Virus record (IMG/VR): IMGVR_UViG_2671180435_000010
Origin: a virus
Taxonomy: Duplodnaviria; Heunggongvirae; Uroviricota; Caudoviricetes
Strand: one strand, 5' to 3'
Length of the DNA: 6,280 nucleotides
Position numbers and translations under genes: made by a program. This document shows, piece by piece, positions 3-6,280 of the stretch. Each line of letters opens with the position of its first letter. Within the stretch, counting starts at the first letter, position 1. The notes below the pieces were generated by a model. It was not told the origin of the DNA and searched no databases. It worked only from the letters and a program-made list of their open reading frames with translations.

Positions 3-170
3 ATTAAAGAAAGATTCAGAAATGCGAAGCTAAAGAACAAGGTTAGTGACCTCGATGACTTTGATGATAGTGACGATGATTTTACTTTTACACCAAAAAA
101 GAAAACTCACACCGAGCCAAAGAAAGAAAAAGTTAAAGTCAGACGTGTTTATGGTGGAGGAATGTTTTAA
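3..170 (+). CDS. 3' end of a gene that begins upstream of the window (5' truncated); acidic D-rich segment followed by a basic K-rich tail; function unknown
   Basis: Frame open from window start to TAA 168-170 (...DLDDFDDSDDDFTFTPKKKTHTEPKKEKVKVRRVYGGGMF*); stop overlaps the next ATG by 1 nt (TAATG), typical of a translationally coupled operon. Not in the ORF track because it is partial. Confidence 0.45.
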   Translation: MKERFRNAKLKNKVSDLDDFDDSDDDFTFTPKKKTHTEPKKEKVKVRRVYGGGMF

Positions 171-466
171 TGAAAACTTATAATGGCGAGAGAAAATACC
201 GTGACTATTTACTCAGACGTTACAGCATTTCTCGTGAAGGTTACTTGATGAAAGATACTCACGGGGAAGTTTACCGGATTCGACCGAAGAAAGAAGGGAG
301 GGATTATTATTTCGTCGATGATGTGACAGATTTAAAGATTGACGCTTTGAAGTTTGCGGTGCTGTATCATTACGATTTATGGGATTCAGTCCACCAGCTA
401 CGATTAAAAGACGGTGACCCCGGTAATCTGAGGGCCACCAATATTATCAAGGGAAAGTGCCGGTAA
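170..466 (+). CDS. hypothetical protein, 98 aa; weak resemblance to HNH_3-type endonuclease core (tentative)
   Basis: ATG 170 preceded by GGAGG (156-160, 9-nt spacer); 98-codon ORF. Segment VHQLRLKDGDPGNLRATN loosely recalls the His...DG...NLR core of phage HNH_3 endonucleases, but only one Cys is present and no zinc-finger pairs, so the family call is unverified. Confidence 0.6.
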   Translation: MKTYNGERKYRDYLLRRYSISREGYLMKDTHGEVYRIRPKKEGRDYYFVDDVTDLKIDALKFAVLYHYDLWDSVHQLRLKDGDPGNLRATNIIKGKCR

Positions 467-701: not shown

Positions 702-753
702 CATAGTATCATGTAAATGAGGTACTGACAATATGTTAAATAGATGTTAAGAT
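702..753. promoter_or_regulatory. candidate back-to-back divergent sigma70-like promoters with overlapping -35 hexamers
   Basis: + strand: CTGACA 725-730, 17-nt spacer, TAAGAT 748-753, placing the start site near 760, upstream of RBS AAGGAG 774-779 and ATG 790. - strand: TTGTCA (complement of 726-731), 17-nt spacer, TACTAT (complement of ~703-708). Hexamers match consensus 4-5 of 6; prediction by eye only. Confidence 0.25.
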
Positions 754-789: not shown

Positions 790-1080
790 ATGACTCACAC
801 AGTTACGCGCCTTTTGCCAGAGGCATTTGAACGACTGGCAGCAATCAAAGCCAAATATCCCGATATGAAGCACACAGCGCTTGTTGGGGAGATTTTAAAA
901 GAGTCGGTAAACCTTAGCCCTTTCGATAACGTTAAGGGCGTCGCAGAGGGTTCTAAGGCCATCAGAATCACAACGGGCCAACTGGAACTACTCAAAGCAC
1001 AGTCCGCAGTAGCAGGTTGCTCAATGATTCAGGTGTTAAGCGCTAAGGTCCATCAACTGGCGGATAGATTGGAGGTTTAA
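790..1080 (+). CDS. hypothetical protein, 96 aa (ORF track starts at ATG 760; ATG 790 preferred)
   Basis: AAGGAG at 774-779 sits 10 nt before ATG 790; the 760 ATG has no RBS and would lie at the predicted transcription start. Stop TAA 1078-1080 overlaps the next start. Confidence 0.65.
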   Translation: MTHTVTRLLPEAFERLAAIKAKYPDMKHTALVGEILKESVNLSPFDNVKGVAEGSKAIRITTGQLELLKAQSAVAGCSMIQVLSAKVHQLADRLEV

Positions 1081-1301
1081 TGTGTTATAGGTTCCAATAT
1101 TCCACACTTGGCCGCCACCTAATCAGACAGAATTTAGCAGATGCTGAATTTGAAGATGTGACCCTCAAAGCAAACAAACGATTAAAACCCTCTCAAATCC
1201 ACCAGCTTAAACACGAATTAAAGCCACTGGTAATACTCGACTATAACGACCCTGAACAGCTTGAGCAGGGAATTAAGCTTATTTCTGAATGGGGTGCTTG
1301 A
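1080..1301 (+). CDS. hypothetical protein, 73 aa
   Basis: ATG 1080 overlaps the upstream stop (TAATG); GGAGG at 1071-1075; ORF in track; no family recognised. Confidence 0.6.
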   Translation: MCYRFQYSTLGRHLIRQNLADAEFEDVTLKANKRLKPSQIHQLKHELKPLVILDYNDPEQLEQGIKLISEWGA

Positions 1302-1516
1302 TGAAAACTATCACAGTACAACTTCAGACTAATAAAGCATTTCGTTATTTTGAAAACTTGCTTGAGTTATACGAAGGATGGGGAAGTATCCACGGCAAAG
1401 ATGATATCTATCTTCACTTGTCAGCCCCTAACTATTCTCTGAAGACTCCGGTTAAGCAAAGCTGGTTAAAAGACTACGGTCACCAGATGGGGCTATTAGT
1501 CTCAGACTTGAGCTAA
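1301..1516 (+). CDS. hypothetical protein, 71 aa (in-frame alternative ATG at 1289)
   Basis: ATG 1301 overlaps the upstream TGA by 1 nt (TGATG), giving MKTITVQLQ...; the ORF-track start at 1289 would overlap the upstream gene by 13 nt and has no RBS. Confidence 0.6.
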   Translation: MKTITVQLQTNKAFRYFENLLELYEGWGSIHGKDDIYLHLSAPNYSLKTPVKQSWLKDYGHQMGLLVSDLS

Positions 1517-1662
1517 AAACAGCAAAACATATCTCTCAGGCTTTACCAGACGCACCAGAAACGTTTTTAAGCCCCTAATCAGGGTAACTTAGGGAATCGC
1601 CTTAAGTGGTCTAAAAAAGGGGTTAAAACGTCTTAGAATGCGATACAGGAAGGATTTTAAAA

Positions 1663-1968
1663 ATGAATTACCCAATGCAAATTATGGTTGACCAAGAAAC
1701 CATGAATTGGTTGATTGACCTGAACAGGTCGGGCTTTAATATCTATTTCATGCATTGTTTTGAAGCGTCAACGTATATTGACAAGCATATAATCAACGAA
1801 ATTAAACTTGGTGACTATGTTCACAAGCTGGAAGTAACAGACCCATACAATAAGCGCTTTATCATTGAAGAGTGCAATCGACTTGATTTAAGCCCTGAGC
1901 AATTATTGAAGCTGAATGTATTCTTGACCTATCAGAATGAATTAAACCCTTACAGCGAGGTGATGTAA
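1663..1968 (+). CDS. hypothetical protein, 101 aa
   Basis: AGGAAGG at 1647-1653, 9-nt spacer to ATG 1663; ORF in track; possible weak -10 TAGAAT at 1634-1639 upstream; no family recognised. Confidence 0.65.
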   Translation: MNYPMQIMVDQETMNWLIDLNRSGFNIYFMHCFEASTYIDKHIINEIKLGDYVHKLEVTDPYNKRFIIEECNRLDLSPEQLLKLNVFLTYQNELNPYSEVM

Positions 1969-2045
1969 TGACACTCGTTATTCTCTGGATGACTTTAGGG
2001 TTATTTGTTGGTTGCTGGGTAGGTAATACGGTAAATAAGAATTGA
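1968..2045 (+). CDS. possible micro-protein, 25 aa, single hydrophobic helix (MTLVILWMTLGLFVGCWVGNTVNKN)
   Basis: ATG 1968 overlaps the TAA of the upstream gene by 1 nt (TAATG), the same coupling seen at 170, 1080 and 1301; 18-residue hydrophobic core followed by a polar tail; below the ORF-track length cutoff. Very short, so it may be chance. Confidence 0.25.
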   Translation: MTLVILWMTLGLFVGCWVGNTVNKN

Positions 2046-2069: not shown

Positions 2070-2098
2070 TTGACAAATAACCTTAAGCATGAGATGAT
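2070..2098 (+). promoter_or_regulatory. candidate sigma70-type promoter
   Basis: Perfect -35 TTGACA at 2070-2075, 17-nt spacer, -10 GATGAT at 2093-2098 (invariant A2 and T6 present) preceded by an extended -10 TG at 2090-2091. Lies in the intergenic region after the 1663..2045 gene pair. Confidence 0.3.
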
Positions 2099-2220: not shown

Positions 2221-2499
2221 CTCGAAAAGTACTCTTGTTCATTNNNNNNNNNNNNNNNNNNNNNNNNNNNNNNNNNNNNNNNNNNNNNNNNNNNNNNNNN
2301 NNNNNNNNNNNNNNNNNNNNNNNNNNNNNNNNNNNNNNNNNNNNNNNNNNNNNNNNNNNNNNNNNNNNNNNNNNNNNNNNNNNNNNNNNNNNNNNNNNNN
2401 NNNNNNNNNNNNNNNNNNNNNNNNNNNNNNNNNNNNNNNNNNNNNNNNNNNNNNNNNNNNNNNNNNNNNNNNNNNNNNNNNNNNNNNNNNNNNNNNNNN

Positions 2500-3174
2500 A
2501 CTGAACATCCAGCTATCACTATTCAGCGTAAAGAGCATGACAAGCGTATTGAGCTTGANNNNNNNNNNNNNNNNNNNNNNNNNNNNNNNNCGCTAAAGAT
2601 GTCACCAAAAACAACCATCTTTGTGTCTCCTGAGCCTCAAGAGATGCCTGATATTTGCAAGAGTGAAGCATTACTTGAGCTTGAAAAGAAATATTACCAA
2701 CTGCTGAAAGAACAGCGCCTTAGATTAGATGACGCTTACAGCAAAGTTACCTTGATGCAATCAGCTATTGAGCCGTCAGAATTTGAGATTCAGGATGAAT
2801 TGTCACAGAAACCATTTGTCTATTACCAATACGAAGATAATGATGGTTTTGGTACTTTTCAAGAAAACGTCGCAGCCGTGATTAGTAGTCTTCCTGCTGG
2901 ACATCGAATTGTGAAGATGGTTAAGGCATCAAGAGGTGCTGGTCAGTTTATTTACATGACTAATAAGAGCGATGAAGAACTCGCTGAAATTGCTAGACAG
3001 AACATCTTGGCATCACGTAACAAGCAACTTGATAATGTTAAGTTGTATCTCTCAAGAGAGCTTCAGGCTATGAAAGAGCTTGTGAAAGAATATGAAGATG
3101 CTAAGAAGATTGCTATGCAGGCTGATATTGAGCAGCTTACGAAGATTTCTAGCAAATATGCAAAGGCTATTTAA
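2500..3174 (+). CDS. hypothetical helical/coiled-coil protein; 5' end hidden in the masked N block (true start somewhere between 2191 and 2599)
   Basis: Frame open from the first unmasked base (2500) to TAA 3172-3174, and in the same frame on both sides of the 32-N block; heptad-like K/E/L-rich C-terminal half. The 2191 ATG has no RBS at proper spacing (AAAGGTG is 16 nt upstream) and sits inside a hairpin, so the 327-aa model in the ORF track is doubtful. No family recognised; it does not look like a beta-rich major tail protein. Confidence 0.65.
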   Translation, partial: TEHPAITIQRKEHDKRIELXXXXXXXXXXXXLKMSPKTTIFVSPEPQEMPDICKSEALLELEKKYYQLLKEQRLRLDDAYSKVTLMQSAIEPSEFEIQDELSQKPFVYYQYEDNDGFGTFQENVAAVISSLPAGHRIVKMVKASRGAGQFIYMTNKSDEELAEIARQNILASRNKQLDNVKLYLSRELQAMKELVKEYEDAKKIAMQADIEQLTKISSKYAKAI

Positions 3175-3198: not shown

Positions 3199-3405
3199 AT
3201 GATTGATTTAACAGAACGCTATGAGCTTATTAAAGCAATTAGTGAACGATTGAAAGAACAACCCAACAAACCAAAACGAATCAAATCATTCACCTCCTCT
3301 AAGCAAAAGAATAGAATCAGGAAAATAGCTAAGTGGTGTCTTGATAAATTACCAAGTGATTGTCAGATTGTTGGTGAAGATGGTAATTATTATCTGGTTA
3401 GGTAA
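3199..3405 (+). CDS. hypothetical small basic protein, 68 aa
   Basis: Strong RBS AAAGGTGGTGG at 3184-3194 before ATG 3199; ORF in track; K/R-rich; sits immediately upstream of the tape-measure-like gene. Confidence 0.55.
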   Translation: MIDLTERYELIKAISERLKEQPNKPKRIKSFTSSKQKNRIRKIAKWCLDKLPSDCQIVGEDGNYYLVR

Positions 3406-3503
3406 CAAGATTGGTTGGGTGAAAATCTACGGGAGAGATTATCGAGTGATATCGGTAGTCTTTCCCTTTTTCGTATATGAACACTTAAAGAGGTGAAACA
3501 TGA

Positions 3504-5684
3504 ATGAGCAAATTCACAGTTGATAGTTTTATCGTTGAACTTAGTTTCAGTGAAAACGTTATTAAGGGCTTGCAAAGAGTTGAAAAGGCAGCTTTGCAGT
3601 CAGCACAAAGAATTGAACGCAATTTGAATAGAGCGTTTAAGGTCGATACCAAGCAACTTGACAGCAATCTGACAAGTTCTTTAGGGCAGCTTGAAAGGAA
3701 GTTTAATAAGACCTTTGACAAGATTGAGCAGAGAGCAAGAAGCACAAAAGCATTTCAGTTTGCCACCAGATTTAATGACACTGTTAATCCTCCAAAACAA
3801 TCAAGGCAACCACGAATTAGCGGAAACAGAGCAATCACAGCAGCGCATAGCGTGAATATGTCTAAGCTTGGTGATATTAATCCGCTGATGGCTAAAATGT
3901 TTAAAGCACAGTATTACAGCTTAAGCGGTAAGGCTGGTAATATTGGAAGTGAAAAGTTTAACGCTGAACTTGCAAAATTAAATCAATCTCTTCGTGAAAC
4001 GTTGAATAAACTCAGGTCACAGACAAAGACCGCCAGCATTAACAATACAAGCGACGCATTTAATAATCTTGCAAGCAATGCGATTAAATTATCTGGTGCA
4101 TTTTACTCTGTGATGGGTGCTCTTAACGCTTACAAGGCCATTATGAATGCAGGTCTTAAACGAGATTCCGCACAGAGAGCCGCTAAGTTTGTACTTGGTG
4201 ATAAAGCATCTGAAGCTGAGGTATTTATTCGAAATTTAGCAGACAAGACAGGTCTTAATATCTCTGAAGGGCTATCAAGCTACGCTAAGTTTGCAGCAGG
4301 TGCTCAGGGTTCTATGTCACAGGAACAGACACAGGAGCTATTTGGTAATGCAACGGCTATGAGTCGCTTAATGGGGCTTTCTAACGATGAGCTAAACGGC
4401 ATTTTGAGAGCATTTGAGCAGATGGCGAGCAAGGGCAAGATTCAGGCTGAGGAATTACGTGGGCAGTTAGGTGACCGTATGGCTGGTGCATTTAAGCTAT
4501 TCGCTGAAGCATTGGGTATGACTGCTACAGAGCTTGATGCAGCCATGAAAAACGGGAAGGTACTTTCCGCTGATACTCTCCCTAAAGTCGCTAAACAGAT
4601 GGGCTTGATGATTGATAAAGCGGGTGGCTGGGCTGAAGTCACTAAGAGCACTCAGACAGCTTTAGGTAAGTTAGCAAACAATTGGGATGATACGATGGTG
4701 AAAATCTTCTCAGGTTCACAGGATGAGCTAAACGGCTTCTTATCCAGCCTGAGTAACCTGCTTAGTGAAATGGGGATGAGTTCTTCTATCGCTGGTGATG
4801 CTATCGGTGGACTTATCGACATGCTTAAAGCTGGTGTAGATGATATTCGCGTATTCAATAACACCATTGAAGGCTGGATTTTACAGACTAAGAAGTTCTA
4901 TTACAGCCTTGATGACACTAAACGAAAACTACTTGATGAAGTCGGTGATGGTTTTATCAACTTCGTCAAAGGTCTTGCTATAGCGTTATCTGCAAAGACG
5001 CTATTCAGTGCTACTACAGGGGTTATGAACCTGACAAGAGCAATCACAACGTTAGGTACAAGAGCTAATCAGGTGGCTGGTCAGGTAGCTACTGGTAAAG
5101 GTGGTGGAAAACTGAAAGGTGTAGCTGGTGGTGTAGGTAGTGCTCTTGCAATTGGTTATGCTGATGACGGTTATGAAACAGCGTTAGCATTAGCTTCAAT
5201 GATTCCACAAATCAGAGGCGTCACTCTTGGTTTATATGCATTGAAGAAAGCACTGGATTTTATGAATCAGGAAGTAGTCAAAAACGCTAATATGCATCCG
5301 TCTGGGGTAGGTGTGGGTAGTGACTTTAATCCCGTGTATTCTGGTGACCCTAATAAACCGAATATGATTAACGAAGGATGGAGTAGAATTTTTAGTTCAA
5401 TGGGTGAATTGTTTAACAATGCCACAATGAATATTGCAAGATTCAATCATCCAGAGTTAAACAACATTAAGCAAGATTCAGCATTAACGAGTGCAGATAT
5501 TCAGGGTCTGAGGGATGAAATTAGTGCTTTGAGTAAGCGTATTCAGGAGCCAGTGAAAGTTTCACTTGGTGGTCAAGTTGTCGTTCGACCAGATGAACCA
5601 TCTTTCTTTACTTTCAATCAATCAGCTAATGACCAGTTCACGCAGGATATGCTCTTAAGTTCAAGCTATCCAGAGGAAGAATGA
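3504..5684 (+). CDS. putative phage tail tape measure protein, 726 aa
   Basis: RBS AAAGAGGTG at 3488-3496, 7 nt before ATG 3504; by far the largest ORF. Predicted to be long and helical with A/K/L/N/S-rich composition, a central block (KASEAEVFIRNLADKTGL...ELRGQLGDRMAGAFKLFAEALGMTATELDAAMKNG) resembling the conserved tape-measure domain, and a Gly-rich segment (GKGGGKLKGVAGGVGSALAIGY). Family call is by recognition only, with no HMM search. Confidence 0.75.
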   Translation: MSKFTVDSFIVELSFSENVIKGLQRVEKAALQSAQRIERNLNRAFKVDTKQLDSNLTSSLGQLERKFNKTFDKIEQRARSTKAFQFATRFNDTVNPPKQSRQPRISGNRAITAAHSVNMSKLGDINPLMAKMFKAQYYSLSGKAGNIGSEKFNAELAKLNQSLRETLNKLRSQTKTASINNTSDAFNNLASNAIKLSGAFYSVMGALNAYKAIMNAGLKRDSAQRAAKFVLGDKASEAEVFIRNLADKTGLNISEGLSSYAKFAAGAQGSMSQEQTQELFGNATAMSRLMGLSNDELNGILRAFEQMASKGKIQAEELRGQLGDRMAGAFKLFAEALGMTATELDAAMKNGKVLSADTLPKVAKQMGLMIDKAGGWAEVTKSTQTALGKLANNWDDTMVKIFSGSQDELNGFLSSLSNLLSEMGMSSSIAGDAIGGLIDMLKAGVDDIRVFNNTIEGWILQTKKFYYSLDDTKRKLLDEVGDGFINFVKGLAIALSAKTLFSATTGVMNLTRAITTLGTRANQVAGQVATGKGGGKLKGVAGGVGSALAIGYADDGYETALALASMIPQIRGVTLGLYALKKALDFMNQEVVKNANMHPSGVGVGSDFNPVYSGDPNKPNMINEGWSRIFSSMGELFNNATMNIARFNHPELNNIKQDSALTSADIQGLRDEISALSKRIQEPVKVSLGGQVVVRPDEPSFFTFNQSANDQFTQDMLLSSSYPEEE

Positions 5685-5779: not shown

Positions 5780-6280
<501 letters not shown>

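Follow-up and report, generated by a model that had tools for sequence, protein, structure and literature searches.

A chain of five small genes on a Shigella sonnei chromosomal island, possibly the control block of a satellite-like element

The stretch of DNA considered here, called the window throughout, is the 6,280-nucleotide record IMGVR_UViG_2671180435_000010, which is filed as a virus of the Caudoviricetes. Between positions 790 and 2045 it carries a chain of five small genes lying ahead of a partial tail module. The initial annotation had taken the setting to be a phage genome and had recognised no function in the chain. Here we describe the chain and the mobile chromosomal island that holds it, and we set out a tentative case that the chain serves a satellite-like element as its non-structural control block, headed by a putative DNA-binding autoregulator. 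Comparison loci are cited by L numbers where they have to be told apart.

The gene chain and its chromosomal island

The chain genes lie on one strand and encode products of 96, 73, 71, 101 and 25 amino acids (aa), the last from a micro-open reading frame (micro-ORF; Table 1). As first described, the three leading genes are coupled, a 146-bp gap follows, and the micro-ORF overlaps the 101-aa gene; these coordinates and overlaps proved exact. At the 96-/73-aa junction, TAATG (1078-1082), the stop codon of the 96-aa gene and ATG1080 have one base in common, and overlaps of 1 nt likewise join the 73- and 71-aa genes (TGATG, 1299-1303) and the 101- and 25-aa genes (TAATG, 1966-1970). The gap divides the chain into two translationally coupled units. 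Shine-Dalgarno-like motifs precede the 96-aa gene (AAGGAG, 775-780), the 73-aa gene (GGAGG, 1071-1075), the 101-aa gene (AGGAAGGA, 1646-1653) and the micro-ORF (GAGGTG, 1957-1962), and that of the 71-aa gene, which starts at 1301, is weaker than the others.

Four same-strand ORFs of at least 60 aa that begin with ATG together cover 82% of positions 790-2045. In 2000 composition-matched simulations under a first-order Markov model coverage averaged 6.6% and never exceeded 53%, and four such ORFs were obtained in 0/2000 runs. Comparison with related loci gave ratios of non-synonymous to synonymous divergence (dN/dS) of about 0.15-0.25 for the 96-aa gene, about 0.1-0.3 for the 101-aa gene and about 0.15-0.35 for the 25-aa gene, the closest pairs excepted in the last case, as those differ at 4 nt only. 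Within the 71-aa family dS was 2.6 against a dN of 0.18 (ratio 0.07), and homologues of the 73-aa protein (53% aa identity) and of the 71-aa protein (49%) have kept their frames open although dS is saturated. Because dN/dS is low, or frames are kept at saturated dS, all five ORFs, the micro-ORF included, are genuine genes under purifying selection.

All of the small proteins in the window are exact Shigella sonnei proteins (PSZ80_19550-19575), each present on at least 1000 contigs, and in S. sonnei chromosomes the island that encodes them is situated between ymdF and wrbA. Relatives of the island were found in 499 of 5426 complete Escherichia coli genomes, with further relatives in E. albertii and Citrobacter. 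The full 73/71/101 arrangement occurs in 20 of these 5426 genomes, and 244 of them match the region at least in part. The island unit is 11-12 kb long and is cleanly inserted at three sites, namely beside wrbA, within yecE and within mdtG, and its right end carries at each site a cognate variant of a large serine recombinase (Pfam Resolvase, Recombinase and Zn_ribbon_recom; phrog_95, 4e-78). Because the proteins are exact in S. sonnei, the insertions are clean and a large serine recombinase is present, the setting of the chain is a mobile chromosomal island, some 11 kb long in S. sonnei, and the phage genome initially assumed was mistaken.

From left to right the island holds a small serine recombinase, a Dam-like methyltransferase, a Rep-like winged-helix gene and a 98-aa ORF; then a divergent gene for a 58-aa membrane protein, the chain and a non-coding stretch of about 400 bp; and finally a 236-aa gene, a 68-aa gene, genes for a tape measure protein (TMP) and a Dit-like protein, and the large serine recombinase. 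Its GC content is 39.6%. The Rep-like protein, 317-325 aa long across islands, matches replication-initiation, DnaD-like and O-like families of PHROG (6e-9 to 9e-7), with weak, below-threshold matches only to Pfam HTH_36 and DnaD_N; no origin of replication was identified on the island. Pfam and PHROG scans recognised no capsid, portal, terminase, sheath or tube gene among the island proteins, no tail-assembly chaperone (TAC) was identified on the island, and an Rfam scan of the window and of one intact island returned no known RNA family. Gene order is kept in Escherichia, E. albertii and Citrobacter, running from the 96-aa family through a slot for the 73-aa domain or an HNH gene to the 101/107-aa gene, the 25-aa gene and the tail module. 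The middle slot is variable and contains the 73-aa domain, either with a helix-turn-helix (HTH) or with the 71-aa gene, and/or an HNH gene.

Comparison with related phages, which had been proposed at the outset, yielded no homologue of the chain: searches of 50,697 phage records gave neither a nucleotide nor a tblastn match, although 213 Felix-O1-like records in that collection match the neighbouring tail genes. Thirteen island proteins were searched by tblastn against the phage records and, the TMP and the Dit-like protein excepted, had no homologue; the 236-, 68-, 98-aa and Rep-like proteins were among those without a match in the phage collection. Neither the chain nor the window matched the plasmid collection. 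The chain proteins also bear out their earlier description as orphans by sequence, with no match for any of them in Pfam, PHROGs, NCBIfam or PADLOC, the defence models of the latter giving nothing for the five proteins at E <= 1.

In S. sonnei the island has become immobilised and has decayed in part. At its right end IS21 and IS1 elements follow the Dit-like gene, and the recombinase is split by an IS3 element (L017, 14002-20306). In an E. coli copy (L006) the Rep-like and 96-aa genes are frameshifted, and the 236-aa gene contains an IS3 element.

Table 1 Features of the window in and around the gene chain
Feature	Position	Strand	Basis or remark
98-aa ORF	170-466		overlaps end of Rep-like gene
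58-aa membrane-protein gene (MHDFF...)	476-652 (longer ORF to 682)	-	divergent from chain
Divergent promoter-like site TTGTCA-17-TACTAT	731-703	-	promoter scan
Heptad ATGTAAA	711-717	+	candidate operator
Sigma-70-like promoter CTGACA-17-TAAGAT, extended -10 TG	725-753	+	promoter scan, 8-locus alignment
Heptad ATGTTAA	733-739	+	candidate operator
Heptad ATGTTAA	744-750	+	candidate operator
96-aa gene	790-1080	+	ORF list
73-aa gene	1080-1301	+	ORF list
71-aa gene	1301-1516	+	ORF list
Intergenic gap, 146 bp	1517-1662		between 71- and 101-aa genes
101-aa gene	1663-1968	+	ORF list
25-aa micro-ORF	1968-2045	+	ORF list
Promoter-like site TTGACA-17-GATGAT with TG, conserved	2070-2098	+	25 bp past micro-ORF
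236-aa gene	2464-3174 (22450-23160 in L002)	+	start within N-masked stretch
68-aa gene	3199-3405	+	directly upstream of TMP gene
TMP gene	3504-5684	+	Pfam TMP_3 (PF20155) 2e-21, phrog_4036 4e-93
Dit-like baseplate gene	5841-6280	+	PF21821 Dit_like; pseudogene in window

Products of the chain and a candidate operator

The family of the 96-aa protein comprises 41 clusters at identities of at least 61%, found only in Escherichia, Shigella and Citrobacter. Its start is placed at ATG790 and not at ATG760, because 23 of 23 aligned members begin M-x-HTVTR. In the AlphaFold2 model, for which the predicted local distance difference test (pLDDT) score is 61, a strand-helix-helix (beta-alpha-alpha) unit occurs twice in one chain with a disordered linker in between, and the strands are able to pair, as expected of a tandem ribbon-helix-helix (RHH) protein. 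The best fold matches of the model were TraY and single-chain Arc, and a Foldseek search of viral models (BFVD) matched it to tandem RHH proteins from viruses of archaea. In repeat 2, the segment between the helices has an invariant G76 and C77, followed by S or T at residue 78, throughout the 23 aligned sequences. The 96-aa protein is therefore predicted, with moderate confidence, to be a single-chain tandem RHH DNA binder. The earlier statement that no function could be assigned no longer holds for this gene, whereas it stands for the 73-, 71- and 101-aa genes.

Tandem RHH proteins already known include TraY of the F plasmid, the engineered single-chain Arc, AvtR of an archaeal virus and DndE, to which the 96-aa protein is only 10-19% identical. 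TraY acts at oriT in the relaxosome and DndE in DNA phosphorothioation, and neither context is present on this island. A distant relative of 92 aa (L007) gave a DndE match below threshold (E = 0.09), and the family profile returned noise only from PDB sequences.

Upstream of the chain lie three heptads that may form an operator, with start-to-start spacings of 22 bp and then 11 bp. The two ATGTTAA copies fall in the spacer of the chain's sigma-70-like promoter, and the ATGTAAA copy overlaps the divergent promoter-like site of the 58-aa gene. The -35 element of the window (725-730) reads CTGACA, where 7/7 related loci aligned with the same promoter have the consensus TTGACA. The pair ATGTTAA-N4-ATGTTAA occurs once per island locus and always at the promoter of the 96-aa family operon. 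By island type carrying the 96-aa gene, the pair is exact in two and variant in the third, a subtype with a 70%-identical 96-aa protein in which ATGTTAT and ATGTTAA are spaced by 10 bp. The L007 and L010 islands encode a 96-aa homologue that is only 33-36% identical and whose gene stands second in the operon; there the exact pair is found upstream of the -35 element, in a rearranged promoter with differing surroundings.

RHH repressors that read phased repeats in their own promoter are exemplified by omega of pSM19035, which uses direct heptads, by Arc and Mnt of the P22 immI region, and by CopG. The resemblance lies in a small RHH gene that stands first in its operon and in 7-bp repeats, one helical turn apart, that overlap the promoter. 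Those repressors are single RHH units that dimerise, whereas the 96-aa protein is predicted to be a covalent pseudo-dimer. They differ further in that binding is proposed here from co-occurrence of gene and motif, the evidence on the heptads consisting of their placement and of this co-occurrence with the 96-aa gene. Taken with the predicted fold, the 96-aa protein is probably the autoregulator of its operon.

The 73-aa protein aligns with the N-terminal ~80 residues of proteins of 128-141 aa that occupy the same slot in sister islands and end in a resolvase-type HTH (Pfam HTH_28/HTH_23). Across the family alignment H13, L14, R16, D54, Y55, L67 and I68 are invariant, and a stand-alone homologue, 53% identical, is present in L008 and L022. 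No family match was found for the 73-aa protein in Pfam, PHROGs or NCBIfam, and the 73/141-aa profile gave noise only against PDB sequences. The 71-aa protein has homologues at 29-49% identity in three island subtypes (L007, L008 and L010; tblastn), and in the L007/L010 subtype an HNH_3 endonuclease occupies the 73-aa slot. A phmmer search with the 71-aa protein of 1.84 billion representatives returned only 3 genuine clusters, and neither the protein nor its profile matched Pfam or PDB sequences. For neither of these two narrow orphans is there a usable fold assignment. The possibility that the two genes are halves of a split 141-aa pseudogene was ruled out, since only the 73-aa part aligns, and the HTH-bearing C-terminus of the 141-aa protein is unrelated to the 71-aa protein, which has homologues of its own.

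A gap of 137-178 bp is found in other island types at the position equivalent to the 146-bp gap. A long hairpin (-33.4 kcal/mol, z = -2.0) forms when the gap is folded as RNA, and no promoter-like site was detected on its + strand. A 106-bp segment of it has one inverted copy, 73% identical, near the left end of L004 (10668-10763); as a general feature of the islands this was rejected, the match being weak and confined to L004.

The 101-aa protein beyond the gap is a distant homologue of a 107-aa protein found in the same slot elsewhere (25-35% identity; tblastn E 2e-10 to 7e-7). It is a narrow orphan with no usable fold assignment: its AlphaFold2 model is poor (pLDDT 54) and the generic fold matches were left unused, and the 101/107-aa family profile returned only noise from PDB sequences. 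Homology to the 96-aa family, with both proteins as tandem RHH, was rejected on an hhalign probability of 0.2%.

The 25-aa product, MTLVILWMTLGLFVGCWVGNTVNKN, consists of one hydrophobic helix and a conserved polar tail, GNTVNKN. In nine aligned loci its gene has exactly 25 codons in the same frame while dS exceeds 1, and tblastn matches in further loci have 64-92% identity. In almost all loci examined the 25-aa gene comes straight after the 101/107-aa gene and overlaps it by 1 nt; the peptide was not detected in L003 or in the Citrobacter locus L023. Between island types the peptide is better conserved than the 101-aa family (64-92% against 25-35% aa identity), and from its sequence it appears to be a conserved membrane peptide.

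The satellite comparison and rival explanations

The sole phage relatives of the window are the TMP and Dit-like genes of Felix-O1-like phages, for example phage garuso (L001, 7025-10032). The island TMP is colinear with the Felixounavirus TMP and of near-equal length, at 29-34% aa identity, and the Dit-like protein of an intact island copy (L002) is 72% identical in aa to the product of the Felixounavirus gene that follows the TMP gene. The Dit-like copy in the window has 87-95% nucleotide identity across the 213 phage records, and recent recombination between the island and Felix-O1-like phages is implied, because such nucleotide-level patches are common to the island and Felixounavirus. Between the window (3504-5684) and island variants L011, L016 and L023 the TMPs are 47-51% identical and the Dit-like proteins 62-74%; the island TMP thus seems to be diversifying fast. 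In the window the Dit-like gene lacks 74 nt at 5988/5989 that are present in all relatives, and as a result a stop codon (5991-5993) ends it after 50 aa.

PLEs, which are satellites of Vibrio cholerae about 18 kb in size, integrate by a large serine recombinase, replicate on their own and parasitise ICP1, a virulent myovirus. PLEs have TAC, TMP and baseplate hub genes of their own, with products 20%, 20% and 41% identical to those of ICP1 (PMC12987554), and they assemble chimeric tails (PMC12987554, Nature 2026); other putative satellites also carry tmp genes (PMC12987554). The element described here is likewise a small island that a large serine recombinase has integrated at specific chromosomal sites, and it has a putative initiator gene (Rep-like, as recognised here from PHROG matches), many small orphan ORFs and a partial tail module of its own, in which TMP and hub have diverged from those of a virulent myovirus to the extent given above. 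It differs in its host family and candidate helper (Felix-O1-like), in being about 11 kb long and in having no recognised TAC, capsid-remodelling or nuclease genes, and its chain of small ORFs is without a known PLE counterpart. The likeness to PLE is drawn from layout, the island being known here from its genes. From an architecture that combines a large serine recombinase, a Rep-like gene and a diverged TMP and hub, we infer that the island most resembles a PLE-type phage satellite of Felix-O1-like phages.

Small regulatory and interference genes are familiar from other satellites, such as delta, epsilon, psu and sid of P4, and stl, str and ppi of phage-inducible chromosomal islands (PICI). 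The chain is comparable, on general background, in that short fast-evolving genes stand between modules for replication and for the hijack of morphogenesis, a comparison in which no sequence or structural relationship is shown. The island is unlike P4 and PICI in having no tyrosine integrase, primase, AlpA or capsid-size genes.

We tentatively favour a control-block reading, in which the chain serves a satellite-like island in a non-structural capacity with gene 1 as its tandem-RHH autoregulator, and would give this slightly less than an even chance. The 96-aa protein would bind the 11-bp-phased ATGTTAA heptads in and next to its own sigma-70 promoter, and would thereby autoregulate the rightward operon, and possibly the divergent 58-aa gene too, in the manner of Arc/Mnt/CopG/omega-type repressors. 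The 73- and 71-aa products would be fast-evolving, modular accessory proteins in the control of induction or replication, probably nucleic-acid-associated, a role suggested because sister islands have an HTH fusion, and others an HNH gene, in the same slot. The 101- and 25-aa genes would form a coupled pair immediately ahead of the tail operon's promoter and leader; our guess is that they control when late (tail-module) genes are expressed, or that they act on the envelope of helper or host. With a tape measure and baseplate hub of its own, the island would prey on virulent Felix-O1-like myoviruses, and the chain would be a control and interference module rather than virion hardware. A fuller claim is that the chain is the control/interference module of undescribed PLE-like satellites of Enterobacteriaceae (Escherichia, Shigella, Citrobacter) that parasitise Felix-O1-like myoviruses, with a tandem-RHH master switch and four new helper-sensing or helper-inhibiting factors lacking known homologues; this we regard as doubtful, if well worth stating.

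Several points weigh against this reading. The 96-aa protein had no match at E <= 1 in Pfam, NCBIfam or PHROG, RHH models included. The heptad motif was chosen post hoc, and ATGTTAA is not enriched across the whole window (5 observed against 3.1 expected). The roles given to the 73-, 71- and 101-aa proteins are guesses from position, we infer the satellite lifestyle from architecture, and no capsid-remodelling or packaging gene is recognisable on the island. The IMG/VR matches are proviruses predicted in isolate genomes and not particles. Finally, the S. sonnei copy is degraded, with a truncated and IS-disrupted Dit-like gene, a recombinase split by IS3 and the altered -35 element CTGACA, and the chain in this window may no longer serve its original purpose.

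An alternative that we consider unlikely, though it retains a fair share of the explanatory ground, is that the chain, or its 73/71- and 101/25-aa parts, encodes effectors against the helper or other phages, acting in abortive infection, superinfection exclusion or helper takeover, and that the 25-aa peptide and the divergent 58-aa protein target the membrane. It overlaps the control-block reading and could apply to some genes with gene 1 still a regulator. Anti-defence and host takeover, raised as candidate roles in the initial annotation, may apply to the 73-, 71- and 101-aa proteins. Fast divergence and modular swaps (73 plus 71 aa, a 128/141-aa fusion, or HNH) would suit effectors, as would the patchy occurrence of the full arrangement, seen in 20/5426 E. 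coli genomes against 244 with at least a partial one, and a hydrophobic 25-aa peptide under purifying selection. Satellites are also known for small proteins that inhibit the helper, Rta of PLE being one example (PMC12987554). However, the chain proteins are without a PADLOC match, and the slots hold diverged orthologues in conserved order, not unrelated cargo.

That the chain is merely a decaying remnant of a defective prophage, its genes useless, we judge improbable. The IS21, IS1 and IS3 elements, the 74-nt deletion in the Dit-like gene and the weakened -35 element of the S. sonnei copy fit such decay, as do the frameshifts and IS3 insertion of L006, but purifying selection was seen on all testable genes, and a unit of about 11 kb whose recombinase is intact is found as a clean insertion at three loci and in several genera. 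The tblastn searches, moreover, offer no phage source for the thirteen island proteins searched, apart from the TMP and the Dit-like protein.

Very improbable in our judgement is a type II toxin-antitoxin module, in which an RHH antitoxin/repressor would be paired with a 73- or 71-aa toxin. A location on a mobile element fits such a module, but the predicted RHH protein is a tandem single chain whose AlphaFold2 model has no C-terminal toxin-binding tail, and the 73- and 71-aa proteins match no toxin family in Pfam, NCBIfam or PADLOC. Neither a conserved cognate toxin nor an indispensable antitoxin was found: the downstream partner varies (73 aa, a 128/141-aa HTH fusion, or HNH), and L006 is viable with a frameshifted 96-aa gene and intact 73- and 71-aa genes.

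The least probable explanation, that the chain supplies virion completion proteins (head-tail joining or tail completion proteins, or chaperones) to the adjacent tail module, draws on its place upstream of the TMP gene on the same strand, on the frequency of small coupled genes in such modules and on the TAC beside the TMP of PLE (PMC12987554), but is set aside on the predicted DNA-binding fold of the 96-aa protein, on the promoter, ~370-nt leader and 236- and 68-aa genes that separate chain and TMP gene, these two genes being the better chaperone candidates, and on an island with no recognisable head genes to join. The initial annotation had itself doubted a head-tail joining role, and rightly, as nothing was found in its support. 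The identities of head-tail connector, tail completion protein and tail chaperone were left without support after the hidden Markov model searches gave no confident match to head or tail completion proteins, with no structural family of PHROG or Pfam matched and no homologue in Felixounavirus or the rest of the 50,697 phage records.

Of the five chain genes, one, encoding the 96-aa protein, gains a probable function, and the main interest lies at the level of the island. No description of this island or of any Felix-O1 satellite was found in the literature, and it is apparently an undescribed but widespread element of Enterobacteriaceae with an architecture parallel to that of PLE. To our knowledge, PLE is the one satellite for which tail hijacking through a tape measure of its own has been demonstrated, and this not before 2026. 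Should the island be a satellite that parasitises Felix-O1-like phages, a tractable counterpart of the PLE/ICP1 system would be present in about 9% of complete E. coli genomes (499/5426) and, as far as the protein collection represents it, in essentially all of the S. sonnei lineage. Felix-O1-like phages are used in Salmonella typing, in biocontrol and in therapy cocktails, and a resident element that targets them would have practical weight. The chain would then be the site of the element's switch and of its helper-directed small proteins, for which the RHH protein and its candidate heptad operator provide a directly testable handle. If the island is not a satellite, what remains is an ordinary set of conserved orphans on an integrative element, with an RHH regulator at their head.

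Neighbouring genes and minor features

The divergent 58-aa gene has the promoter and heptad region in common with the chain and a Shine-Dalgarno motif, AAGGA, 8 nt before its ATG. Its product is conserved at 38-98% identity across island loci; the gene is called in L018 and L019, and the E. coli records examined in RefSeq leave it unannotated.

The micro-ORF and the 236-aa gene are separated by the non-coding stretch at 2046-2463 (L017, 10383-10781), part of which is N-masked in the window (masked at 2244-2499 and 2560-2590). The promoter-like site at 2070-2098 heads a leader of ~370 nt for the 236-aa gene. The stretch contains a 12-bp inverted repeat, atgacctttcag...ctgagaggtcat, at 2190-2219, and a tandem TTGAATCCTTT repeat is seen where the S. 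sonnei sequence is unmasked; no Rfam match was obtained for 2046-2463, which may be a regulatory leader of the tail operon.

No match to the 236-aa protein was found in Pfam, PHROG, PDB sequences or, for the unmasked 193-aa part, NCBIfam. Many RefSeq records label it a transposase, a name with no support from profile models that looks like an annotation artefact. Its C-terminus is a coiled coil, and from this and its position the protein is a possible tail-assembly factor. Between the 68-aa and TMP genes a strong terminator-like hairpin (3431-3466) has a 15-pair stem followed by a run of T. Given this hairpin, expression of the TMP may need read-through or antitermination.

At the left end of the island, the small serine recombinase is oriented oppositely in L002 (17086-17655) and L005 (3878-4429). 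An invertible segment was ruled out, as the two recombinases are different genes (41% identical), and the difference is one of cassette replacement. The 98-aa ORF aligns by eye with small HNH_3 endonucleases of other island subtypes (...DG[DN]..N...N[LI]), is without the first catalytic His of HNH_3 and has no BLAST or Pfam match; it may be a degenerate, 'domesticated' HNH.

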